Of a stretch of 64,000 nucleotides of DNA, positions 3,166-14,369 are shown one piece after another. The notes under the pieces were generated by a model that was not told the DNA's origin, searched no databases, and saw only the letters and a program-made list of their open reading frames with translations. Position 1 is the first letter of the stretch. Each line of letters opens with the position of its first letter. Source of the stretch: a virus; IMG/VR virus record IMGVR_UViG_3300021424_002547, positions 1 through 64,000 of that record; one strand, written 5' to 3'. A program made the position numbers and the translations under genes.

Positions 3166-3557
3166 CGAGAACATTGAAACGAAAAGTCATCATCCGCGAA
3201 ACGGATTTCGCTAAAGTCAAGCATCGGGCTTTCATGCCTATAGGAGTCGATGTACTCTACGATCGTGCGGAATGGCGGCCCCTGACCCGAGAAGACATTG
3301 AACGAGATATGATCATGCGAGGTCTCAAGGGTGAACAGATGCCTCGTGGCGGATCGTGGTTGATTCCCGAGGACTATCTCCTGTATAATCAAGACAGCCT
3401 ATACAATACCAGATACTCGCGGTGGAATCCCGGCTACGATGAAGATGGATATATGACCGTACAGCCAAGGAAGAATCTACCTAGAGTGAGATTGGGTTGG
3501 GCCGTGTTTGAAAAAGATCTGGAGCAGATCATGCTGGAGTTATATGACCGGGATTGA
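3162..3557 (+). CDS. hypothetical phage protein
   Basis: ORF coupled by ATGA overlap. Confidence 0.6.
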   Translation: MTRTLKRKVIIRETDFAKVKHRAFMPIGVDVLYDRAEWRPLTREDIERDMIMRGLKGEQMPRGGSWLIPEDYLLYNQDSLYNTRYSRWNPGYDEDGYMTVQPRKNLPRVRLGWAVFEKDLEQIMLELYDRD

Positions 3558-4909: not shown

Positions 4910-5125
4910 ATGTTCGAAGTATATCTCAATGATGCTCGTATGGACTACGATGAATCGGAACGGCATTTCCATAATGCCGATCATTGGGCACGAGAACATT
5001 GTGAGAGTTATGTCAGCCACGACGTCCAAGATGTTTCGGATGTCAGTTATTACTATGACAACATCGCCCTTTACCTATTCCGTGAAGAACGAGATGCATT
5101 GATGTTTCGGTTAAAATGGGCTTGA
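4910..5125 (+). CDS. short 'FxLRW' family paralogue
   Basis: WAREHC ... FREERDALMFRLKWA. Confidence 0.7.
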   Translation: MFEVYLNDARMDYDESERHFHNADHWAREHCESYVSHDVQDVSDVSYYYDNIALYLFREERDALMFRLKWA

Positions 5126-5144
5126 AGTCTACATTGGAGGATAG

Positions 5145-5333
5145 GTGACTGATCGTCGATACGTAGCCATTCTCGAAACCAAAACATTCTTCCTCGCCGA
5201 TTTTCAATTTTGGGCAGAGCATGAGCAGGAATTGGATGCGTGGTGTGCGAAAAATTTCTGTCAGCGTAAGGGCATGGTTGTCACTGCATTGAACGACTAT
5301 GGTTATATGCTTTTTGGACTACGGTGGAGTTGA
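5145..5333 (+). CDS. short 'FxLRW' family paralogue
   Basis: WCAKN ... MLFGLRWS; GGAGG RBS. Confidence 0.65.
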   Translation: MTDRRYVAILETKTFFLADFQFWAEHEQELDAWCAKNFCQRKGMVVTALNDYGYMLFGLRWS

Positions 5334-5358
5334 CTGGATATCGTTTTGATAGTATAAT
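5330..5358 (+). promoter_or_regulatory. sigma70-type promoter
   Basis: TTGACT-N17-TATAAT. Confidence 0.75.
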
Positions 5359-5389
5359 ATATCATCAAAGAACATTTCGGAGTTGAAGA

Positions 5390-5809
5390 ATGAACGAACG
5401 ATTAGATCAAAGATTGGTAGAAAAATATCCTAAGATATTTGCCAACCGGTACGCTGACATGAAGACCACGGCCATGTGCTGGGGATTCGAACACGGTGAT
5501 GGATGGTACGATATCATCGACAGCCTCTGTGCCAACATACAGAATCACATCGATTGGCAAGAAAAGATGGGCAATGAGATTGCTCAGGTAGTGGCCACTC
5601 AGGTCAAAGAAAAGTTTGGAACGCTGAGATTCTACTATGACGGCGGGGATGACTACATCTCTGGACTGGTCAGTATGGCAGAATCCTGGTCTGCGGTGGC
5701 CTGCGAAGAATGTGGAGCACCGGGCACACAGAACGACGGGGGCTGGATCAAAACGCTCTGTGAAACCCATAGACGAGAAAGAGACGAACGATATGAAAAT
5801 AGGATTTAG
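5390..5809 (+). CDS. conserved hypothetical phage protein
   Basis: GDGW...QVKEKFGTLRFY...CEECG motif. Confidence 0.75.
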   Translation: MNERLDQRLVEKYPKIFANRYADMKTTAMCWGFEHGDGWYDIIDSLCANIQNHIDWQEKMGNEIAQVVATQVKEKFGTLRFYYDGGDDYISGLVSMAESWSAVACEECGAPGTQNDGGWIKTLCETHRRERDERYENRI

Positions 5810-6197
5810 CCTAGGTCGCTGTGTTAGAGACATAGTAAACGGAGAAGTCAGCATCGACGATGTGGCCTTCATCATCACCGCTACCAGTATCTCGGAGAGA
5901 GAACAACTGGGCAACGTGATCCTGATGTACAGATCAGAACCCAGGTATCTCCAAGGACTAGACCATCAACAATGCCTGGCTGTGGCGGAGCAGCTCTGGG
6001 ATTCGAATCGAATCCTACAGCCCAGAAAACAGGGTCTACATCGCCACGCACAGCCAGAAAATAGCATTTGGGTGGACATGTTCCCCACGGAACTCAGCGA
6101 AAACGAAGCGGTCAAGAACGCTTGGTCCGCCTACAGATTTATGCTACATATGGTAGAAAACGTGGACACAGAGGCCACGGAGGTTTTCAGGACATAA
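5793..6197 (+). CDS. hypothetical phage protein
   Basis: MKIGFSLGRCVRDIV start. Confidence 0.65.
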   Translation: MKIGFSLGRCVRDIVNGEVSIDDVAFIITATSISEREQLGNVILMYRSEPRYLQGLDHQQCLAVAEQLWDSNRILQPRKQGLHRHAQPENSIWVDMFPTELSENEAVKNAWSAYRFMLHMVENVDTEATEVFRT

Positions 6198-6207
6198 GGA
6201 GTGGACT

Positions 6208-6393
6208 ATGATCAAAATGGGCAGCAAATGGACCAGCAGCGATGGAAAGATTTTTATAGTTTTGGGCACCGTGGATCTAGAGGGTAAACGATGGGTCTAC
6301 TACAGATCGGAAACTTCGGAAGCGCATTTGCCCAACGAATTCAGCTGTTTTGAAGAGAGTTTTTTGGCTAGATTTCGCCCGGTAGTTGAATAA
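6208..6393 (+). CDS. hypothetical protein
   Basis: AAGGAG RBS; short ORF. Confidence 0.6.
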   Translation: MIKMGSKWTSSDGKIFIVLGTVDLEGKRWVYYRSETSEAHLPNEFSCFEESFLARFRPVVE

Positions 6394-6447
6394 TACTATG
6401 CTATAATTATCACAGTGATAAGTAGTAGTGAACGTTAAGGAGATATC

Positions 6448-7023
6448 GTGTCAAAAAGATTGGACGATTTCAACGCCCAAGACCGCCAGAATGTTAAATT
6501 CCAAGATGCAGGAGTACATTTCCTCGTCGGGGAGATAGATGAGGAAAGCGTAAACGAAACTGTTAAATGGCTGGCCTACGAGAACATAGATCCTAGACCA
6601 GATCGAGTGCTGACTCTTTATGTCAATAGCCAAGGAGGAGATCTCTACGAAGCACTTGGACTCATAGACATGATGAGGAACAGCCGGATTCCCATACGGA
6701 CTATCGGATATGGATCTGTGATGAGTGCCGCTTTCCTCATCGTGGCTTCCGGTTCAAAGAGTGAACGTTATGTTACCAAAAACTGCGGTATCATGTGCCA
6801 TCAGATGTCATCCACAGAAGAGATGGGCAAGTATCATGATATCAAAGCACAGAGAAAAGAAACAGATCGACTTAATCAAGCCATGTACAATGTCCTGAAA
6901 GAAACCACAGGACTAGATGGTCGCATCATCAAGACCCGACTTCTGCCTGCACACGATGTCTACATGACCTCAGAAGAGATGATCGAGTTCGGCGCTGCCG
7001 ATCAGATATTAGAAAGGGGATGA
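6448..7023 (+). CDS. clpP: ClpP-like serine protease
   Basis: LYVNSQGG, nucleophile region GSVMSAA, IMCHQ, D.YMTSEE..EFG.AD. Confidence 0.85.
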   Translation: MSKRLDDFNAQDRQNVKFQDAGVHFLVGEIDEESVNETVKWLAYENIDPRPDRVLTLYVNSQGGDLYEALGLIDMMRNSRIPIRTIGYGSVMSAAFLIVASGSKSERYVTKNCGIMCHQMSSTEEMGKYHDIKAQRKETDRLNQAMYNVLKETTGLDGRIIKTRLLPAHDVYMTSEEMIEFGAADQILERG

Positions 7024-7024
7024 C

Positions 7025-7261
7025 ATGAAAGTGGTATCTATCGATCCTAAGATCAAAATCGACGAAAAGAGAAAGACCGAGATGCTAGAAGTCCTAGACG
7101 AAATGAAACGCATGGTAGAAACAGGGGAGATCGAAGAATTCGTGGCCTGTTCCACAGGCAATGGGGAATGTAAGATACATGCCAGCTGCCTAGACCATGT
7201 GGGTGGTGTGGGTCTGTTCGAAGTTGGTAAGCACTTACTGATCCAGCGTGAGATCGACTAA
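7025..7261 (+). CDS. hypothetical protein
   Basis: ORF directly after clpP. Confidence 0.6.
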   Translation: MKVVSIDPKIKIDEKRKTEMLEVLDEMKRMVETGEIEEFVACSTGNGECKIHASCLDHVGGVGLFEVGKHLLIQREID

Positions 7262-7298
7262 ACGGACAAAAAAGCCACATTTCACTACGAAAAAATCG

Positions 7299-7327
7299 TT
7301 GACAACTAAATAAAGTGTCTATATAAT
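7299..7327 (+). promoter_or_regulatory. sigma70 consensus promoter of leader/tRNA operon
   Basis: TTGACA(7299-7304)-N17-TATAAT(7322-7327), A-tract upstream. Confidence 0.9.
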
Positions 7328-7334
7328 AGGGACT

Positions 7335-7445
7335 ATGATGAAACAACTTCATTCGATTAGAACCAGTGCAAAACAGATGGCCATAACATATTGGTCAGAG
7401 CCCTGTTTTGGCCTAGGAAATGATCGTACAAGGGGTTCCGCATAG
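7335..7445 (+). CDS. putative attenuator leader peptide, 36 aa (MMKQLHSIRTSAKQMAITYWSEPCFGLGNDRTRGSA)
   Basis: ATG lies at the expected +1 (leaderless); 19/20 amino acids and 31 distinct codons; 3' end overlaps antiterminator strand. Confidence 0.75.
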   Translation: MMKQLHSIRTSAKQMAITYWSEPCFGLGNDRTRGSA

Positions 7446-7476
7446 TCTAGGACGATACAAGATTACACGGAACCCC
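7432..7476 (+). promoter_or_regulatory. antiterminator helix
   Basis: GGGGTTCCG(7432-7440) is the exact reverse complement of CGGAACCCC(7468-7476), which overlaps the 5' arm of the terminator. Confidence 0.75.
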
Positions 7477-7502
7477 AGGATCGAAAGACCTGGGGTTTTT
7501 TT
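7471..7502 (+). terminator. intrinsic terminator (attenuator)
   Basis: AACCCCAGG-a-TC-GAAA-GA-CCTGGGGTT followed by T7 tract (7496-7502). Confidence 0.9.
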
Positions 7503-7601
7503 ATCACAGTGCATGTGGAAACGAGGTCCTTTCAGCACTCTAAAAAATAAACGGGCGGCCTACCGGATGGCTTATCCTTGTGTGGATAAAAAAATGGTAG
7601 A

Positions 7602-7672
7602 GTAGTAAAATGTTTTCCTACTCCCGTTGACAAGGAGGACACCCGACATAGTCGCGGAGAGCATTTTACTAC
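7602..7672 (+). ncRNA. unidentified structured RNA
   Basis: 17-bp closing stem 7602-7618/7656-7672 with G-U pairs, two internal hairpins. Confidence 0.55.
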
Positions 7673-7700
7673 ACACTCTCCACCTCCGCCTGCACAGCGG

Positions 7701-7729
7701 TTGACAGCATAGCGGGAGAGTGTTATAAT
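7701..7729 (+). promoter_or_regulatory. second sigma70 consensus promoter, immediately before tRNA-Tyr
   Basis: TTGACA-N17-TATAAT, lying inside inverted repeat 7673-7681/7715-7723. Confidence 0.7.
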
Positions 7730-7737
7730 TTTTCACT

Positions 7738-7823
7738 GGATGCGTGTGCCGAGCAGCGAAGGCAGCGGTCTGTAAAACCGTGACAGGGAAACATCGTAGG
7801 TGCGAGTCCTACCGCATCCACCA
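7738..7823 (+). tRNA. tRNA-Tyr(GTA)
   Basis: Cloverleaf, GCGGT-CTGTAAA-ACCGT, long variable arm, CCA. Confidence 0.9.
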
Positions 7824-7960
7824 TTAAGTGATAGCATGGCTCGTAGGGATCGATCAATCCCAACCTTGTCCGAAGCGGGAAGCCTGTGATACCGGTAAAC
7901 GGCAGATATAATCTGCCAACATCAGGTAGCAAGAGGATAGTAAACCGTGCTATCACTTAA
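7824..7960 (+). ncRNA. unidentified structured RNA between tRNAs
   Basis: 16-bp closing stem TTAAGTGATAGCATGG/CCGTGCTATCACTTAA and internal hairpins (GGCAGAT/ATCTGCC, GGGAT/ATCCC). Confidence 0.6.
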
Positions 7961-7961
7961 T

Positions 7962-8036
7962 GGTTCCATAGTATATCGGTTAGTATAGCGCCCTGTCACG
8001 GCGCAGGGACGGGTTCGACTCCCGTTGGGACCGCCA
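7962..8036 (+). tRNA. tRNA-Asp(GTC)
   Basis: Cloverleaf, GCGCC-CTGTCAC-GGCGC, CCA. Confidence 0.92.
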
Positions 8037-8059
8037 AGGATTGTGATAAGTAGATTTAC

Positions 8060-8134
<75 letters not shown>

Positions 8135-8144
8135 AGTTTTAGAT

Positions 8145-8218
8145 GCGGCGGTAGTTCAATGGTAGAATGAGAGACTTCCAATCTCACGACAAGGGTTCGA
8201 TTCCCTTTCGCCGCTCCA
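8145..8218 (+). tRNA. tRNA-Gly(TCC)
   Basis: GAGA-CTTCCAA-TCTC, U73, CCA. Confidence 0.88.
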
Positions 8219-8228
8219 AGTTTTCCGT

Positions 8229-8304
8229 TCCGGAGTAGCTCAGTTGGTAGAGCGTTGGTCTGTTAAACCAAATGTCGCTGGATCGTGCCCAGCCTCCGGA
8301 GCCA
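8229..8304 (+). tRNA. tRNA-Asn(GTT)
   Basis: TTGGT-CTGTTAA-ACCAA; atypical T-loop (ATCGTGC). Confidence 0.85.
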
Positions 8305-8311
8305 ATATAAT

Positions 8312-8386
8312 GGGGATGTAGTGCTAATGGGAACACACCTGTTTTGCAAGCAGGAATTGAGAGTTCGATTCTCTCCATCTCCACCA
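8312..8386 (+). tRNA. tRNA-Ala(TGC)
   Basis: Anticodon TGC, G3:U70 pair, CCA. Confidence 0.92.
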
Positions 8387-8394
8387 TAGTTTTT

Positions 8395-8473
8395 CCGAGT
8401 GTAGGATAGCCTGGTTCATTCCGCCTGCTTTGGGAGCAGGATGTCGCAAGTTCGAATCTTGCCACTCGGACCA
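8395..8473 (+). tRNA. tRNA-Pro(TGG)
   Basis: CCTGC-TTTGGGA-GCAGG, CCA. Confidence 0.92.
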
Positions 8474-8477
8474 TTTT

Positions 8478-8551
8478 GCGTCGTTCGTCTAATGGTAGGG
8501 CCGTGCCCTTACAAGGCACAGACGGAGGTTCGATTCCTTCCGGGGGTGCCA
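8478..8551 (+). tRNA. chimeric tRNA-Val(TAC) with non-cognate 3' acceptor strand
   Basis: Anticodon arm GTGCC-CTTACAA-GGCAC; 5' GCGTCGT does not pair with local CGGGGGT but pairs perfectly with ACGACGC at 9265-9271. Confidence 0.75.
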
Positions 8552-8562
8552 TAAATAGGGTT

Positions 8563-9201
8563 ATGAAAAAGTTATCTGTTTTTTTAAATCATCCTCAATG
8601 TAGTGTGCAAAGCGCACACGGAATTATAAGAGCATTAAGCGACGACTGGGAAATAGATTGCATAGAACGTCATCATCTGAGAGATTCTATTTTAAAAAAA
8701 TATGAAGTTTTAGCTGTGCCGGGCGGACTAGGAGATAGTGATACTTGGCACAATATAATGGAACCTTTCAAAGATACTGTGCTAAATTTTTTGGCAAGAA
8801 ACAAAAAGTATCTTGGTATTTGTATGGGTGCATACTGGGCAGGCTCGTATTATCTTAATGCACTTCAAGGCGTTGAACCTGTACAATACATAAAAAGACC
8901 TAGATCTGAAATTAAAAGAAGTTTTGGAACAGTTGCAGAAATAGATTGGTTAGGTGAAACTGAATCTATGTATTTCTATGACGGATGCACCTTTGAGGAT
9001 CAAGGTGGTGATTACAATATAGTAGCTAGATATGCTAATAAAGATCCAGCTGCTATTATACAAAACAACATAGGCCTAATAGGACCTCATCCCGAAAGTG
9101 ATATCTATTGGTATGCTAAAGGTTATCTAAAACCCCACTGGCATGAATATAGACATCATTTACTGCTGCGTAATTTTGTTCAACAGTTAGTAAAGAATTA
9201 A
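8563..9201 (+). CDS. class I glutamine amidotransferase-like (BPL_N-type) protein
   Basis: VPGG.GD, YLGICMGAY, GPHPE; TAAATA 5 nt before ATG. Confidence 0.8.
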   Translation: MKKLSVFLNHPQCSVQSAHGIIRALSDDWEIDCIERHHLRDSILKKYEVLAVPGGLGDSDTWHNIMEPFKDTVLNFLARNKKYLGICMGAYWAGSYYLNALQGVEPVQYIKRPRSEIKRSFGTVAEIDWLGETESMYFYDGCTFEDQGGDYNIVARYANKDPAAIIQNNIGLIGPHPESDIYWYAKGYLKPHWHEYRHHLLLRNFVQQLVKN

Positions 9202-9202
9202 T

Positions 9203-9275
9203 ACCTCTGCCAATAGATTGGGAGCAGGTCTTCTAAGCCAGCTATCTGAGGGTTCGATTCCTTCACGACGCACCA
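9203..9275 (+). tRNA. chimeric tRNA-Arg(TCT)-like 5' part joined to tRNA-Val 3' end
   Basis: CTTCTAA loop, atypical D arm; 5' ACCTCTG pairs with CGGGGGT at 8541-8547. Confidence 0.6.
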
Positions 9276-9282
9276 GTGTTAT

Positions 9283-9357
9283 GCACGGTTCGACTATCGG
9301 TTAGGTCAACAGCCTTTCACGCTGTAGAGACGGGTTCGACTCCCGTACCGTGTACCA
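9283..9357 (+). tRNA. tRNA-Glu(TTC)
   Basis: ACAGC-CTTTCAC-GCTGT, CCA. Confidence 0.92.
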
Positions 9358-9378
9358 ATATCAACTATAAGTATAATA

Positions 9379-10023
9379 ATGAAGAACTATGTAGACCTTT
9401 TTCCTGTACCTATCGCTAGATATCACAGAGATGATCATGAAGATCTAAGGATCAAATTCCTAACGATATTAGACCAATATCCCAAAGAACGAGCCTACTG
9501 TGAGACGCCGGGGCTGATACATTTTTTCCAAAATGGCGATCTTGATCTCCGGCAATACGAACAATTTCATGATCTACATCGATGGATTTTATCCAGTGTG
9601 AAAGATTACGGCGAGAAATTTTTTGGCATCACAGAGACAGAATTCCTAGATCTAAATGTATGGATCAATGCTAACATAGGAGGTTTCCAGCATCCCCATA
9701 ACCACGGAAATAGTCTCTTCAGCGCCACATACTACATACAGTTTGATTCTGAGATACACAGCGGTCTAGAGTTTCATAACCCTAGGTCACCTAGCAGTCT
9801 GTTCAAACCTTATCTAGACGTTAACGGCAGCAAGGAAACTGAGCACAGTAAACACAAACATCTGATACCTGTGTCCCAAGGGGATCTATTAATATGGCCC
9901 AGCGAACTGATGCATGGGTACGATCAACAGAAAGTCGCTGTGCCTAGGGTGTCGATGAGCATGAATTTCTTACCAGAAACGGTAAAGAGTCATGTCTATG
10001 GTTTTAAAATCAGTAAATTATGA
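9379..10023 (+). CDS. putative 2OG-Fe(II) oxygenase (TIGR02466-like)
   Basis: LFP.PI, HNH..S.FS..YY, WPS.L.H, R.S.SMN. Confidence 0.8.
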   Translation: MKNYVDLFPVPIARYHRDDHEDLRIKFLTILDQYPKERAYCETPGLIHFFQNGDLDLRQYEQFHDLHRWILSSVKDYGEKFFGITETEFLDLNVWINANIGGFQHPHNHGNSLFSATYYIQFDSEIHSGLEFHNPRSPSSLFKPYLDVNGSKETEHSKHKHLIPVSQGDLLIWPSELMHGYDQQKVAVPRVSMSMNFLPETVKSHVYGFKISKL

Positions 10024-10024
10024 T

Positions 10025-10099
10025 GCGGGTATAATTCAGGGGTAGAATGTTTCCTTGCCAAGGAAAATGCCGTCGGTTCGAATCCGACTACCCGCTCCA
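10025..10099 (+). tRNA. tRNA-Gly(GCC)
   Basis: TTTCC-TTGCCAA-GGAAA, CCA. Confidence 0.92.
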
Positions 10100-10105
10100 A
10101 GTTTT

Positions 10106-10200
10106 GCTCCCATAGCTTAACGGTAAAGCTCCCGGCTTATATCCGGGCGATGCCTCTAGATGAGGGGATGATCTAGGTTCGAATCCTAGTGGGAGTACCA
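10106..10200 (+). tRNA. tRNA with TAT anticodon (Ile, AUA reader) and long variable arm
   Basis: CCCGG-CTTATAT-CCGGG; 7-bp acceptor, T arm CTAGG/CCTAG; about 25-nt extra arm. Confidence 0.8.
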
Positions 10201-10206
10201 TTTTAT

Positions 10207-10281
10207 GTATCGGTAGTGTCAACGGCAGCACGACAGTCTCCAAAACTGCTAGTGAGGGTTCGAATCCTTCCCGGTACGCCA
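10207..10281 (+). tRNA. tRNA-Trp(CCA)
   Basis: CAGT-CTCCAAA-ACTG, G73, CCA. Confidence 0.9.
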
Positions 10282-10299
10282 CATTCAAGAAAGGAGGGC

Positions 10300-10911
10300 A
10301 TGATGCCTAGCGTATTTTTAGTATCGGACACGCACTTCGGACACGCTGGCGTGTGCCGATTCACTCGAAATGACGGAGTAACGAAGTTAAGACCTTGGAC
10401 AGATCCAGATGAGATGGATGAGGCTATGGTCAAGGCTTGGAACGAAAAGGTCAAGCCCACGGACAAGGTCTACCATCTCGGTGATGTGGTGATCAATCGT
10501 AAGGCTATGAAAACCTTGGCTCGTTTGAACGGTGATAAGGTTTTGATCCGCGGTAATCACGATATCTTTCGTGATGACGAATACCGCGAATACTTCCGTG
10601 AGTTACGTGCTTACCATGTGATGAATGGAATGATCTTGTCACACATTCCTGTACACAGTGACAGTTTGGGTCGCTTCGGTACCAACATTCACGGACACTT
10701 ACACGCCAACCGTGTAAAGAAAGCCCGCGGAGTTGATGCCAGAACGGGTGCTGTTTTGTACAGCGATGAGATCGATCCTAGATACCATTGTGTCTGTGTA
10801 GAACAAACTCCCGATTTCGCACCAATCTTATTCGAAGATGTCATAAAGCGTATCCAAGAGGAAGGTGGCGAAATAGGTTTCCGCAGCGGTAATGGCCCTA
10901 TCGTAGATTAG
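10300..10911 (+). CDS. calcineurin-like metallophosphoesterase
   Basis: SDTHFGH, LGD, GNHD, HGHLH; AAGGAGG RBS. Confidence 0.9.
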   Translation: MMPSVFLVSDTHFGHAGVCRFTRNDGVTKLRPWTDPDEMDEAMVKAWNEKVKPTDKVYHLGDVVINRKAMKTLARLNGDKVLIRGNHDIFRDDEYREYFRELRAYHVMNGMILSHIPVHSDSLGRFGTNIHGHLHANRVKKARGVDARTGAVLYSDEIDPRYHCVCVEQTPDFAPILFEDVIKRIQEEGGEIGFRSGNGPIVD

Positions 10912-10957
10912 AGTTTTTCTCGGTTCTCTTCTAAATAAAAACCGAGACCAAATGCAT

Positions 10958-11035
10958 GCAACGGTGGCAGAGAGGCCCAATGCAAGAGTCTGCAAAACTC
11001 TAAAACCGTGAGTTCGAATCTCACCCGTTGCTCCA
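10958..11035 (+). tRNA. tRNA-Cys(GCA)
   Basis: AGAGT-CTGCAAA-ACTCT, U73, intact acceptor stem. Confidence 0.9.
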
Positions 11036-11039
11036 GAAC

Positions 11040-11120
11040 GCCCCTATGGCCAAAATGGTAAAGGCGGCTCTCTCAAAAGGAGTGTTATAACTATCGGTTC
11101 GATTCCTACCGGGGAGGCCA
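11040..11120 (+). tRNA. chimeric tRNA-Leu(CAA) with foreign 3' end
   Basis: 5' two-thirds nearly identical to 11730-11810; T stem ATCGG/CCTAC mismatched. Confidence 0.65.
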
Positions 11121-11133
11121 TATTAAATATTCA

Positions 11134-11382
11134 ATGAACTGGATAAAAATTAACAGTCTTGAATTTGCTCAAGAAGTAGTCCGAGACAGTGATCACGGAC
11201 CAGTTACTTGGTTATATATCCGTGGACCTCAAGGTACGGTCAGAGCCTACGACATAGGCTTTATCACTGATGGGTACTATGAGCAGTATCCAGATCGGTT
11301 ATGGGATCTTTACCTGGATATACTTGCTGTACTAGCAGGACACTATCACTGTTGCTTGTCGGGCAGAGTTTGGAATTTTTGA
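11134..11382 (+). CDS. hypothetical protein
   Basis: TAAATA 4 nt before ATG. Confidence 0.55.
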   Translation: MNWIKINSLEFAQEVVRDSDHGPVTWLYIRGPQGTVRAYDIGFITDGYYEQYPDRLWDLYLDILAVLAGHYHCCLSGRVWNF

Positions 11383-11552
11383 AAAGATCTTTGTTGCCAC
11401 CACATAAGCCACGGACTTATGTGAGCCAGACACATTACTAACCACATCATGGGCATTTCTATACCATGATGAGAATTCAAATAACTTATCACGGCTCCTA
11501 GTAGAAACACAGGTGCCGGAGCAAGACTAAAGAATGTATTAATTTTTTTCAT
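11346..11552 (-). CDS. small membrane protein
   Basis: Two hydrophobic helices; TAAATA 5 nt before ATG on minus strand. Confidence 0.6.
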   Translation of the reverse strand: MKKINTFFSLAPAPVFLLGAVISYLNSHHGIEMPMMWLVMCLAHISPWLMWWQQRSFQKFQTLPDKQQ

Positions 11553-11567
11553 ACAAGTATTTATAAT

Positions 11568-11639
11568 GCCTCTGCAGATGGAGCTGTGCCAGGCCTTCTA
11601 AGCCAGGTTATGAGGGTTCGAATCCGATTGGGGGCACCA
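11568..11639 (+). tRNA. chimeric tRNA-Arg(TCT)-like 5' part joined to tRNA-Leu 3' end
   Basis: GGC-CTTCTAA-GCC; 3' CCGATTGGGGGCACCA complements the Leu(CAA) 5' half at 11040. Confidence 0.55.
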
Positions 11640-11647
11640 AAGATTAT

Positions 11648-11725
11648 GGAAGTGTGGCAGAGAGGCCCAATGCAAGAGTCTGCAAAACTCTAAAGCCGTC
11701 GGTTCGAATCCGACTCCTCACTCCA
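11648..11725 (+). tRNA. chimeric tRNA-Cys(GCA) with Ser-type 5' acceptor strand
   Basis: Body duplicates 10958 copy; 5' GGAAGTG is identical to Ser(TGA) at 11818 and does not pair with 3' TCCTCAC. Confidence 0.65.
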
Positions 11726-11729
11726 GTAT

Positions 11730-11810
11730 GCCCCTATGGCCAAATAGGTAAAGGCGGCTCTCTCAAAAGGAGTGTCATAACTATCGGTTCGAATCCGATT
11801 AGGGGCACCA
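11730..11810 (+). tRNA. tRNA-Leu(CAA)
   Basis: Intact cloverleaf, CTCAAAA loop, CCA. Confidence 0.88.
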
Positions 11811-11817
11811 GTATTAT

Positions 11818-11907
11818 GGAAGTGTGGCAGAGCCTGGCTGAATGCACCTGTCTTGAAAACAGACGATCCGAAAGGGTCCGTGAGTTCGAATCTCACCGCT
11901 TCCACCA
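11818..11907 (+). tRNA. tRNA-Ser(TGA)
   Basis: CTGT-CTTGAAA-ACAG, long variable arm, CCA. Confidence 0.9.
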
Positions 11908-11911
11908 AACT

Positions 11912-12002
11912 ATGTTCCAGTCTTTGTACAGTGAATCCAGCCGGGTGCCTATAAGGTTAGTAGAGACTATGCTGTCGCGGGTAAGCAGCATCTCGGGAAC
12001 AT
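11912..12002 (+). ncRNA. unidentified structured RNA
   Basis: Closing stem ATGTTCC/GGAACAT; internal AGTCT/AGACT and ATGCTG/CAGCAT. Confidence 0.45.
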
Positions 12003-12077
12003 CGGTCCGTAGCTCAGTGGAAGAGTTCTGGTCTTCGAAACCAGCAGTCGGGAGTTCGAATCTCTCCGGACCGGCCA
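12003..12077 (+). tRNA. tRNA-Arg(TCG)
   Basis: CTGGT-CTTCGAA-ACCAG, CCA. Confidence 0.9.
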
Positions 12078-12095
12078 AACATAAAGGAGAATGAT

Positions 12096-12299
12096 ATGAA
12101 ACCCGTAACATTTAGAAATCGATTGAATGGTGAGCGATTCGTCTGCGAAGATACTCGTGCCGTCGAGCAGATTGACGGAGTAGAATATCTCATAGTCCAT
12201 CGTCCCGACGAGCATCGCTCATTCAAGATGCGCAGAGATGCGCTGGAGAAAGATACCGCCGTGGTGAAAGGGATATCACGAAACTTTGCGAAGGTTTAG
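12096..12299 (+). CDS. hypothetical protein (3' end overlaps tRNA-Arg(GCG))
   Basis: AAAGGAG RBS. Confidence 0.65.
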   Translation: MKPVTFRNRLNGERFVCEDTRAVEQIDGVEYLIVHRPDEHRSFKMRRDALEKDTAVVKGISRNFAKV

Positions 12300-12329
12300 T
12301 TTCACGTTCGACTCGTGGCGGCGGTGCCA
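12255..12329 (+). tRNA. tRNA-Arg(GCG)
   Basis: Acceptor ACCGCCG/CGGCGGT, D arm GTGA/TCAC, AAACT-TTGCGAA-GGTTT, CCA. Confidence 0.8.
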
Positions 12330-12335
12330 AACAAT

Positions 12336-12411
12336 GCAGGGGATAGTGTACCGGTGCGCACAACTGTCTGTGAAACAGTAAGATAGGGTTCAACTCCCGT
12401 CCACCTGCCCA
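12336..12411 (+). tRNA. tRNA-His(GTG), imperfect stems
   Basis: ACTGT-CTGTGAA-ACAGT, G-1/C73; acceptor and T stems have mismatches. Confidence 0.65.
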
Positions 12412-12413
12412 AA

Positions 12414-12489
12414 CCCGATTAAGCTAACCTGGTGGAAGCGTCTGTTTGAAGCACAGAAGGGCTTGGTTCGATTCCAAGAGTTGGGACCA
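12414..12489 (+). tRNA. tRNA-Phe(GAA)
   Basis: TCTGT-TTGAAGC-ACAGA, CCA. Confidence 0.85.
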
Positions 12490-12497
12490 TATTTCCG

Positions 12498-12526
12498 TTG
12501 ACAACTGAAGATTTAGAATACATAAT
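12498..12526 (+). promoter_or_regulatory. sigma70-type promoter before tRNA-Leu(TAG)
   Basis: TTGACA-N17-CATAAT. Confidence 0.7.
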
Positions 12527-12541
12527 ACTATTAAGATTAAT

Positions 12542-12624
12542 GCCCCGGTGGTGGAATGGTAGACATGACGGTCTTAGAAGCCGTTGCCTAGTGCGTGAGA
12601 GTTCGAGTCTCTCCTGGGGCACCA
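12542..12624 (+). tRNA. tRNA-Leu(TAG)
   Basis: ACGGT-CTTAGAA-GCCGT, variable arm, CCA. Confidence 0.92.
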
Positions 12625-12629
12625 AAGAT

Positions 12630-12788
12630 ATGAAACTATACGAAGCGACGATCAGAGAACCCGGGCCTGGCACAGAAGAACGCAAGGTTCGGATAGGTGC
12701 CGAAAGCGCCGAAGAAGCCCGCAGGCTGCTACAGCAGCTCTACGGGCCGAGATCAGTTCCCTATCTGCCTCGTGTAGTCCCAAATTAA
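12630..12788 (+). CDS. small hypothetical protein
   Basis: MKLYEATIR... between tRNAs. Confidence 0.55.
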   Translation: MKLYEATIREPGPGTEERKVRIGAESAEEARRLLQQLYGPRSVPYLPRVVPN

Positions 12789-12789
12789 T

Positions 12790-12877
12790 GGAGGGGTCCC
12801 ATAATGGTATTGGAGCAGATTGCTAATCTGTCGGTTGCGCAAGCGGCTTCGGGGTTCAAGTCCCCGTCCCTCCACCA
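12790..12877 (+). tRNA. tRNA-Ser(GCT)
   Basis: GCAGA-TTGCTAA-TCTGT, long variable arm, CCA. Confidence 0.9.
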
Positions 12878-12898
12878 ATATTTTTACAAAGGACTGAT

Positions 12899-13078
12899 AT
12901 GTTTCTAAAACCCACAGCAGCATTTCGATTAAATCAGCAGTCAAAAAGGATCATGGCTACCTATCTTGATCCTCACAAGAGAGGAGAATATAAACGTTCG
13001 ATGATCGAAGCACAATTGGCATCCCTGATCCAACCTAGAGTAATAAAAACTAAAAGAGATGAAAAGGACGCAGAATAA
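12899..13078 (+). CDS. hypothetical protein (59 aa, below ORF-track cutoff)
   Basis: AAAGGA RBS; MFLKPTAAFRLNQQSKRIMA...; TAATG overlap with next ORF. Confidence 0.65.
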   Translation: MFLKPTAAFRLNQQSKRIMATYLDPHKRGEYKRSMIEAQLASLIQPRVIKTKRDEKDAE

Positions 13079-13290
13079 TGGCAAATGTACAACACAGAGA
13101 TCCAATGAAGACCAAAACAGGCAAGACTAGATTGGGTCCTCTGAATCTCCGACAATTGACAGAAATGTTAGCCAAAGAAACCAGATCCAAGAACAAGGGT
13201 AGGATCCAAAACAGGATCCGTGCTTTGGAGAAAATGGGTTTCAAATTACCACAAGAACCGGTTGCAGACTCAGTCTCAGAGACTGTATAA
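13078..13290 (+). CDS. small basic hypothetical protein
   Basis: Coupled ORF; KTKTGKTRLGPLN. Confidence 0.6.
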   Translation: MANVQHRDPMKTKTGKTRLGPLNLRQLTEMLAKETRSKNKGRIQNRIRALEKMGFKLPQEPVADSVSETV

Positions 13291-13299
13291 TAAGTTTTG

Positions 13300-13540
13300 T
13301 CCAGTAGCGATACTGGACCGGTGAAGCGAAGGGTAGATGAGGATAGACACAATAGTTTCAGGCTTCATGCCCGAGACGACAATACTGGCAAAGCGACTTG
13401 AAATCGCTCCGTGCCCGTGTGCTCCGATCCTATACAGACCTGTCATTTGCTGATCGGATATAAGCAGGCCTCTGTGCTTTGTGCATTGTGGCTTGTCTAG
13501 GGAAATCTTAACAGATCCCGCTTGTACATTGTCCGGTCTA
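13300..13540 (+). ncRNA. candidate structured ncRNA
   Basis: About 240 nt with no ORF; GACCGG/CCGGTC closing stem and several hairpins. Confidence 0.4.
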
Positions 13541-13544
13541 TTAC

Positions 13545-13573
13545 TTGACCTTTCGTCGATCCGTCACTATAAT
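13545..13573 (+). promoter_or_regulatory. sigma70-type promoter
   Basis: TTGACC-N17-TATAAT. Confidence 0.75.
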
Positions 13574-13587
13574 ATAAAGGATAGAGG

Positions 13588-13803
13588 ATGGCTAGGATTA
13601 CTTCGCAGAAAGCAGCACAGGTATATGGTGGATTGTTCGATCTGGTACTAGGTGCTAGCCAACGGGCTCGAGAACTCAGGAGAGGCTCCTCTCCCAAAAT
13701 CGTCTGCGACAACGGTCCGGTAGTTACCGCTCTGAAAGAAGTAGAACAAGGTCTTTATACCAAACAAGATTATATGAAATCTCTTAAAGGAAAAAACAAA
13801 TGA
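13588..13803 (+). CDS. rpoZ: RNA polymerase omega subunit homologue
   Basis: MARIT...FDLVL.AS.RAREL..G..P.....P.VTAL.E...G. Confidence 0.85.
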   Translation: MARITSQKAAQVYGGLFDLVLGASQRARELRRGSSPKIVCDNGPVVTALKEVEQGLYTKQDYMKSLKGKNK

Positions 13804-14369
13804 ACATCACACTGCGCAAAGCCAACGCCGTACAAAACGCTATCCAAGAAACTATCCGCGGCATCGAGATCAAAACCCATATCGATATCAACGAATTCCA
13901 GGATGTTACTGCAGAGTTGCAGTCCGCCAACAATTCTCTGTTCGCCAATGACGCTCGCCGACAGAAATTATTGCTGGCGCTTTACAATATCCGTGGTCTA
14001 GTAGGTGCTGCCAACTCGCAGAGCGAAATCGACGTGAAATTAGCCACAGCCGCATTCGTAGACAAACGTGTGTCTCAATTAGAAGAACTGGCTCAGGTCA
14101 AGCCTGTGACTGATCTCGCAGTGATCAATGGTCGGTTAGACAAGATCCGTAATCGCAAGGATGACAGTCGCAGCCTCTACGGTCGAGATGAATCTGTTAA
14201 TACTTCAGTGATCGGTCAGGATCAACTCAAGCAGATCCGCGACGAGATCAAAAACCTCAAAAAGCAGAAGCAGAAGATCAACGACGAAATCCTCGAACTA
14301 AACATCAAGACCGAAATTCCTCTGAGCGACGATGTAGTAAATACTTTGACAGCAGAAGGATTGCTGTAA
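13800..14369 (+). CDS. coiled-coil hypothetical phage protein
   Basis: MNITLRKAN...; ATGA overlap. Confidence 0.7.
   Translation: MNITLRKANAVQNAIQETIRGIEIKTHIDINEFQDVTAELQSANNSLFANDARRQKLLLALYNIRGLVGAANSQSEIDVKLATAAFVDKRVSQLEELAQVKPVTDLAVINGRLDKIRNRKDDSRSLYGRDESVNTSVIGQDQLKQIRDEIKNLKKQKQKINDEILELNIKTEIPLSDDVVNTLTAEGLL

Follow-up and report, generated by a model that had tools for sequence, protein, structure and literature searches.

Why phages carry large tRNA arrays, and when these arrays are expressed, are open questions. A short open reading frame (ORF) that may bear on both lies between a perfect promoter and a strong terminator at positions 7299-7502 of the IMG/VR viral record IMGVR_UViG_3300021424_002547, at the head of a tRNA array. 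We analysed the first 64,000 nucleotides of this 99,685-bp contig, hereafter the window, whose numbering is used wherever no other locus is named. An earlier note on this DNA had proposed that the ORF encodes a "pan-codon" leader peptide, and that progress of the ribosome along it decides whether transcription ends at the terminator or continues into the tRNA genes. The core of that proposal is supported by comparative tests of ORF position, amino-acid diversity and antiterminator covariation. We conclude that the element is probably a ribosome-mediated (leader-peptide) transcription attenuator, which would gate read-through from its promoter, P1, into the phage tRNA array.

P1 lies on the plus strand at 7299-7327 and consists of TTGACA (7299-7304), a 17-nt spacer and TATAAT (7322-7327). 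It scores 12/12 as a sigma70 promoter and is one of only two such matches in the stretch 5000-14000. The promoter is kept in the closest relative, locus L110, and promoters scoring 9-12/12 lie upstream of most other leaders. As the earlier note had described, an ATG at 7335 follows, 7 nt past the -10 element, and because the AUG lies so close to that element the leader mRNA is probably leaderless. The ATG opens a plus-strand ORF of 36 codons plus a stop codon (7335-7445, stop at 7443-7445), with the translated peptide MMKQLHSIRTSAKQMAITYWSEPCFGLGNDRTRGSA. When the ORF was recounted, the composition given earlier held throughout: 19 of the 20 amino acids are present, with Val missing, they are written in 31 distinct codons, and no amino acid is dominant. 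Independently drawn codons of the same length (L = 36) yield a mean of 16.2 distinct amino acids (standard deviation (sd) 1.4) and reach 19 or more with P = 0.03. Of the stop-free 36-codon stretches of the whole window, 1.3% have at least 19 amino acids and 0.7% at least 31 codons, and 0.1% combine the two; among the 126 ATG ORFs of 30-45 codons, the leader ORF alone does so. Synonymous-codon diversity beyond the amino-acid sequence is weak (p = 0.077). Since diversity at this single locus reaches no more than p ~0.03, the possibility that the ORF arose by chance between promoter and terminator has to be weighed; the signal here is modest, and the strength of the case therefore rests on the relatives.

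The downstream half of the proposed geometry was confirmed by folding. The antiterminator 5' strand GGGGTTCCG (7432-7440, also given as GGGGUUCCG) lies in the last four codons of the ORF and is complementary to the 3' strand CGGAACCCC (7468-7476). The resulting duplex has 9 bp, and the hairpin is predicted at -24.1 kcal/mol (z -6.8). The intrinsic terminator (7469-7502) is composed of the stem GGAACCCCAGG/CCUGGGGUUUU, a GNRA-type loop UCGAAAGA and a U tract, and 7469-7499 together with the U tract folds at -19.9 kcal/mol (z -4.4). The last six bases of the antiterminator 3' strand, AACCCC at 7471-7476, are shared with the 5' arm of the terminator, and because both structures use them, antiterminator and terminator are mutually exclusive. 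Minimum free energy (MFE) folds also predict a long hairpin inside the ORF (7353-7425). It contains the possible pause hairpin that had been pointed out at 7369-7410, and we regard it as a candidate pause or region-1 structure. The terminator ends 236 nt upstream of the tRNA array.

These folds are also the starting point for two explanations in which translation has no regulatory role. The whole 169-nt transcript is unusually structured (-56.5 kcal/mol, z -4.9), and a complete promoter-to-terminator unit of this kind could be a stand-alone small gene, either a structured small RNA (sRNA) of ~170 nt or a micropeptide gene, that merely adjoins an array driven by its own promoter. The alternative pairing would then serve the folding or stability of the RNA. 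Attenuator-released RNAs such as rnTrpL can reportedly act in trans in other bacteria (PMC6614838). The second explanation is a translation-independent switch of the riboswitch or T-box type, binding a ligand or uncharged tRNA, in which the ORF is incidental. Mutually exclusive terminator and antiterminator structures in a highly structured leader are compatible with such a switch, and the link to tRNA genes makes tRNA sensing attractive. An Rfam search gave no family at E <= 1 in 7299-7502, T-box included, and tRNA was the only family in the relevant stretch 6500-14000, which argues against this second explanation.

To identify relatives, architecture and terminator motifs were used, because the families are too diverged for blastn, which found no match to the element among 84 related loci. 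The protein encoded inside the array at 8563-9198 served as bait and led to 80 related viral loci, many of them with tRNA arrays. Several of these arrays are preceded by a short ORF and a strong terminator 50-540 nt before the first tRNA, and these ORFs again contain 19-20 amino acids. IMG/VR was then scanned with two terminator motifs drawn from these units. The fairest test set is provided by the 48 viral contigs retrieved by the motif CCCC..ATCGAAAGA..GGGGTTTTT alone. Every one of the 31 motif contigs with a tRNA gene no more than 1300 nt downstream carries an ORF of 33-54 codons with 18-20 amino acids, a count that includes five cases checked by hand, where the ORF caller had overrun. In contrast, such an ORF is found in none of the 13 viral motif contigs without a tRNA and in none of about 120 bacterial loci with the same terminator motif. 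This contrast already contradicts a chance ORF, to which we attach almost no credence.

The same association appears when all pairs of an ORF and a terminator are considered: of the ORFs with 19-20 amino acids, 41 have a tRNA nearby and 12 do not, whereas for ORFs with 18 amino acids or fewer the numbers are 29 and 170. Among 43 unique leader peptides at array heads, 39 contain at least 18 amino acids. We also applied a strict family-level Fisher test of leader composition, in which single-linkage clusters were each represented by their worst member, a factor of three was charged for the choice of frame and non-leaders were kept. Since this test gave only p = 0.0045, we place the weight on the control-based contrasts. 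The short ORF keeps its position at the array head in about 40 distinct relatives, with 22-35 nt between the stop codon and the terminator stem, which bears out the conservation expected of a leader.

A unit of similar layout is present in a cultured phage. The stretch 9261-9427 of Vibrio phage KVP40 (L373) holds an ORF of 37 codons that uses 19 amino acids, together with a terminator; a tRNA-Pro block lies 77 nt downstream. The ORF overlaps an annotated minus-strand hypothetical gene and no clear antiterminator was seen; this unit may be a distant analogue, and we do not claim it as a member of the group. The tRNA clusters of Serratia BF and Xanthomonas XbC2 had no such ORF in the 24 kb examined.

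Is the ORF maintained as a translated frame? The leaders fall into two classes by their start signals. In the first class (the window, L110, L114, L115 and the L048 group), the start codon lies 6-7 nt after the -10 element and is ATG in 11 of 11 cases; leaderless initiation requires ATG. In the second class, a Shine-Dalgarno motif lies 5-7 nt upstream of the start, and GTG and TTG are used as well. L110 is 85% identical to the window at the DNA level, and its leader peptide is only ~66% identical. All indels within the ORF are multiples of 3, whereas the spacers show indels of 1 nt and 6 nt. The substitutions include an E>V change paired with a G>E change elsewhere, with the result that Glu is kept and Val is gained. 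In strain variants from other lake samples, the leader differs by single residues. Across the leaders, 19-20 distinct amino acids are observed against the null of 16.2 (sd 1.4), and Trp occurs exactly once in 13 of the 15 family representatives. High diversity despite divergence, which the earlier note had named as a test, was found: the ORFs of the relatives keep 18-20 amino acids while the peptides diverge strongly. Together, these patterns fit selection that acts on reading frame and composition and not on peptide sequence.

The diversity is strong at the level of amino acids, and we call the leader pan-amino-acid; the "pan-codon" label finds little backing in synonymous diversity, which across leaders has a mean z of only +1.1. 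The ORF RNAs of the relatives are themselves structured (mean z -2.2). The features of the ORF bear directly on both explanations that dispense with a leader peptide. An untranslated sRNA leaves unexplained the in-frame indels, the starts that are either leaderless and exclusively ATG or equipped with a Shine-Dalgarno motif, and the persistence of 19-20 amino acids despite drift. A micropeptide would be expected to keep its sequence, not its composition alone. A riboswitch or T-box-type switch does not account for the ORF features either, and the composition signal lies at the amino-acid level.

We then consider how the composition of the leaders relates to the tRNA genes behind them. ARAGORN counts 22 tRNA genes in the array that follows the element in the window (plus strand, 7738-12877), fewer than the roughly 25 estimated earlier. 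They are interspersed with ORFs, constitute all the tRNAs found in the 99.7-kb contig and are the presumed regulated target. Of the 19 amino acids in the leader, 16 have a tRNA in this array, and Val is missing from leader and array alike. More generally, the arrays behind pan-amino-acid leaders serve every or nearly every amino acid.

Relatives with split arrays, which came to light when metagenomes were scanned with the conserved sequence that follows the terminator, show a finer correspondence. The L382-type leader (L382 5006-5110) contains 17 amino acids, all of them with downstream tRNAs; D and E are missing, and their tRNA genes, tRNA-Asp and tRNA-Glu, are found upstream. E, H, R, V and Y are absent from the L386-type leader, whose upstream block consists of Glu, Tyr, Asp, Arg, His and Met. 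Hypergeometric p-values are ~0.016 for the L382 type and ~0.005 for the L386 type. No leader was found before the upstream Glu/Asp blocks of L382 and L387. The clearest case is L141, in which two paralogous leaders on the minus strand (3344-3463 and 6265-6381) share the same ends and differ in their cores. The leader MRTIN-KHKHFSKSSKWFSNKS-... (core KHKHFSKSSKWF) precedes Lys/His/Phe/Trp/Arg/Ser tRNAs, and the leader MRTIN-LNMINVNNTLNTVMVLNTLCIR-... precedes Asn/Ile/Arg/Thr/Leu/Cys tRNAs. The core of the L223 leader (minus strand, 27-137) likewise matches the tRNA block that follows it, and the leaders of L386, L387, L376 and L378 are also block-specific. Cores that match the following tRNA block link the decoding of the leader to the tRNA genes. 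Judged by composition, block matching follows the same logic as the regulatory codons of known attenuators, the product being tRNA genes, and the window leader is the whole-set version of the block-matched leaders. Neither an sRNA nor a micropeptide explains why the core should match the tRNA block that follows.

Within and near the arrays, we noted several features that are reported as observations in their own right. A 137-nt element forming a long hairpin (7824-7960) lies between tRNA-Tyr and tRNA-Asp in the window. L110 does not have it, and in one lake contig 7823 is followed immediately by 7961; these positions therefore mark an insertion/deletion polymorphism, and the insert may be a small mobile element. 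A conserved tRNA-Ile(UAU), 92-95 nt in size and with a long extra arm, is shared by the window (10106-10200), L382 (6697-6788) and L377 (3297-3391). A tRNA-like gene to which ARAGORN assigns an irregular two-base "anticodon" lies inside the arrays of L382 (6395-6482), L388 (1917-2004) and L390 (1728-1815). L387, a phage-like contig, carries a tmRNA gene at 942-1330 (ARAGORN, tag ANDSVYSLAA), ~3.5 kb upstream of its tRNA blocks.

The switch geometry seen in the window recurs across the relatives. In 38 leaders, the tail of the ORF pairs with the bases just upstream of the terminator 5' arm and with the arm itself (mean z -3.2). Of the first 8 nt of the arm, at least 7 are engaged in the antiterminator duplex, whose 5' strand has its end at -2 to +7 nt relative to the stop codon. 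The MAFFT alignment is one column out of register in places, and covariation was judged by comparing cognate with non-cognate duplexes. Cognate duplexes of tail and arm have a mean of -18.0 kcal/mol compared with -12.2 kcal/mol for non-cognate ones (Wilcoxon p = 8e-8), so that the predicted covariation of terminator and antiterminator is present and conserved in the relatives. Covarying extensions lie outside the shared G/C core, as in TTCCG/CGGAA, TTCTTG/CAAGAA and TTTATGTAA/TTACATAAA. Between the window and L110, two changes in the stem (C>T and A>G) keep pairing as G.U, while the loop varies freely. Outside the stems, sequence is poorly conserved between families, which speaks against a riboswitch or T-box-type switch and, with the evidence given above, leads us to regard such a switch as very improbable. 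Nor does an sRNA or a micropeptide account for the constant overlap between antiterminator and terminator arm, or for an antiterminator end that falls at the stop codon. In comparison of sequences, then, the architecture, its conservation, the covariation and the match between leader and tRNA composition are demonstrated features of this group.

How would a leader-peptide attenuator operate here? We infer that the leader is translated, where its transcription starts, in which direction the switch works and what triggers it, which could be starvation, host tRNA decay or tRNA-cleaving defences. Transcription from P1 would begin at the AUG (7335) or beside it, with a ribosome translating the 36-codon ORF while RNA polymerase advances. 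With fast decoding, the ribosome at the last codons or at the stop codon would cover GGGGUUCCG, the C-rich strand at 7468-7479 would be free, the terminator would form and transcription would end at 7502. If the ribosome were delayed at any earlier codon, or were absent, GGGGUUCCG would pair with CGGAACCCC and no terminator would form, and the polymerase would pass into the tRNA genes. Because the ORF holds nearly every amino acid, mostly once or twice, slow decoding at almost any aminoacyl-tRNA could be sensed and would raise transcription of the array, which would constitute a demand-driven supply loop.

Folding of the 38 leaders was examined in states that mimic these steps. When the terminator 3' arm has not yet emerged, nascent-RNA folds sequester the 5' arm in 33 of 38 leaders, and all 38 form the terminator once a ribosome footprint occupies the stop codon. 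If the helicase edge of the ribosome is set ~8 nt beyond the A-site codon, then of the 19.4 amino acids that a leader holds on average, 18.9 lie where a stall would leave the antiterminator free. When the ORF is folded alone, 33 of 38 leaders offer the antiterminator 5' strand a second partner further upstream within the ORF, so that a state like the 1:2 pairing of trp is possible. This upstream pairing, which resembles trp region 1:2, lends some support to an attenuator with other logic, in which the untranslated state terminates through a region 1:2 hairpin, or in which the unit mainly insulates the array against upstream transcription and reports general ribosome availability, not single aminoacyl-tRNAs. 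The folds are compatible with either default state of the untranslated RNA, which leaves room for such variants. A sensor of general ribosome availability, however, needs neither every amino acid nor cores matched to tRNA blocks, and we consider these variants together to be improbable. A broader form of the leader-peptide attenuator, towards which we lean somewhat less firmly than towards the attenuator itself, is that many uncultured phages use a demand-driven tRNA supply in which each tRNA block stands behind a "test" ORF of its own amino acids. Slow decoding, whether from starvation, host tRNA loss or tRNA-cleaving defences, would then raise the matching tRNAs.

The region between the terminator and the first tRNA bears on how much of the array an attenuator could control. 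A second promoter, P2 (plus strand, 7701-7729), consists of TTGACA, a 17-nt spacer and TG-TATAAT, an extended -10 element, and scores 12/12. P2 ends 9 nt before tRNA-Tyr, the first tRNA of the array. A further promoter lies at 12498-12526 (11/12); both had been flagged by the earlier note as a caveat, and both are present. P2 and ~30 nt upstream of it (7671-7729) are invariant between the window and L110, with varying flanks, and this stretch may be a regulatory site. A second strong promoter between the terminator and the first tRNA occurs in most relatives and is lacking only in the L048 group. In that group, family B (L048, L074, L197 and L227), there is no P2 and the tRNAs begin 50-54 nt after the terminator. 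The presence of P2, here and in most relatives, favours a stand-alone small gene beside a separately driven array, and family B, in which the tRNAs directly follow the terminator, argues against one. Taking this together with the unexplained reading frame, block-matched cores and placement of the antiterminator, we regard a stand-alone gene as unlikely, although it is the least improbable of the alternatives. Where P2 is present, the attenuator can only modulate the share of array transcription that comes from P1. Block matching ties the leader to the tRNA genes, but the attenuator is not their sole control.

A boxA-like element, GCACTCTAAAA, lies on the plus strand at 7535-7545, in a stretch of 73 nt over which the window and L110 hardly differ. 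The rrn-type boxA consensus is GYTCTTTAANA (PMC5725501), from which the element differs at two positions. A boxA with no more than 1 mismatch is present 25-30 nt ahead of the first tRNA in 26 of 39 related arrays, compared with 0 of 39 control stretches. Such elements in front of the arrays suggest Nus-dependent processive antitermination on the tRNA genes. The order in the window and in L110 is terminator, boxA-like element, P2 and tRNA-Tyr. Because the boxA-like element lies after the terminator and before P2, P1 read-through transcripts may be the only ones that carry it, and a polymerase that escaped the terminator would pass it on the way into the tRNA genes. In four lake metagenomes, the summed contig depth at 7511-7611 is ~3x that of the flanks, and the stretch after the terminator is therefore common to several co-occurring phages. 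Fifteen contigs carry this stretch in the metagenome scan.

Several observations weigh against the attenuator that we propose. A perfect P2 only 9 nt before the first tRNA means that the array could be expressed without any read-through from P1. The window ORF has no Shine-Dalgarno site, and its translation depends on a predicted leaderless start. As stated above, the diversity of this ORF taken alone reaches only p ~0.03. The leader contains Lys, Met and Gln codons for which there is no tRNA in the 99.7 kb, and the related arrays of L006, L007, L029 and L033 have no such leader. Leader codons are cognate to phage anticodons at a frequency of 0.78 compared with 0.75 expected, and the idea that codon choice in the pan-amino-acid leaders tracks the phage anticodons was dropped on these numbers. 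With a wider ribosome footprint, 1-2 amino acids per leader (N29 and D30 in the window) come to lie near the antiterminator, and a stall there might mask it. Finally, equilibrium folds favour the terminator in 27 of 38 full-length leaders, and the attenuator model therefore needs kinetic, co-transcriptional control.

The context of the element was also examined. Since a contig of 99,685 bp has an estimated completeness of only 28%, its source is probably a jumbo phage. The contig is present in ~20 lake-water DNA metagenomes, and the cultured-phage collection holds no close relative of it. In that collection, the DNA of 7200-7760 and the protein of the gene at 8563-9198 found no match, and the leader regions of L048 and L104 matched tRNA genes only. 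The ClpP neighbour was used as bait as well, and its 4 relatives have no nearby tRNAs; no relatives were found for a 78-amino-acid upstream ORF. Further along the window, the 30 kb at 16000-46000 have a G+C content of ~30% compared with ~46% elsewhere and are dense in ORFs, and this stretch looks like a compositionally foreign island.

If the attenuator operates as proposed, tRNA supply in these phages would be set by measured decoding speed and would not be constitutive. This would extend classical attenuation from amino-acid synthesis to tRNA genes, would provide a directly testable sensor of global aminoacyl-tRNA status, and would give phages a concrete way to answer host tRNA loss or anticodon nucleases. 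Full-text literature searches found no description of leader-peptide control of tRNA genes. Acting in this way, the element would be the first known ribosome-mediated attenuator of tRNA genes, and it would equip the phage with an inbuilt defence against tRNA depletion.

Among known systems, the amino-acid-operon attenuators are the natural reference. They include trpL, hisL, leuL and pheL as well as the multivalent thrL and ilvGMEDA leaders. As in these attenuators, a short ORF precedes an intrinsic terminator, the antiterminator overlaps the 5' arm and would be masked by a ribosome at the end of the ORF, and the leader codons correspond to what the regulated genes supply. Four sequence features of the general class, namely an ORF with start signals, a terminator, an antiterminator that excludes it and codons that match the product, were found. 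The marks of the trpL/hisL subfamily were not, as there are no tandem cognate codons and the targets are tRNAs. Unlike the trp and his attenuators, the phage leader would regulate tRNAs and not biosynthetic enzymes, and in place of a run of one amino acid it has 19 amino acids, mostly once or twice each. Its location in phages, the many leaderless starts, and the second promoter and boxA after the terminator set it apart further.

A second group consists of the "ribo-regulators" identified by Term-seq, such as the vmlR and lmo0919 leaders, in which ribosome stalling induces resistance genes under translation inhibition. Here too, stalled translation on a short upstream ORF leads to read-through of a terminator. 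In the ribo-regulators, a drug or an arrest peptide acts on the expression of resistance proteins, whereas the composition of the phage leaders points to aminoacyl-tRNA supply and the output is tRNA. As for rrn-type boxA/Nus antitermination, boxA is frequent among the related arrays, but it is a neighbouring element and not the switch. The closest functional parallel that we compared is the long tRNA array (trn operon) of Anabaena sp. PCC 7120, which is induced by translational stress and held in check by TrcR, a repressor whose binding repeats overlie the -10 element and the start of transcription (PMC8421152, PMC10272220). The Anabaena array resembles the phage array, as interpreted here, in being a horizontally mobile, supernumerary set of tRNA genes that is switched on by impaired translation. 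The two would differ in the means of control, as PMC8421152 and PMC10272220 mention no leader peptide, attenuator or terminator.

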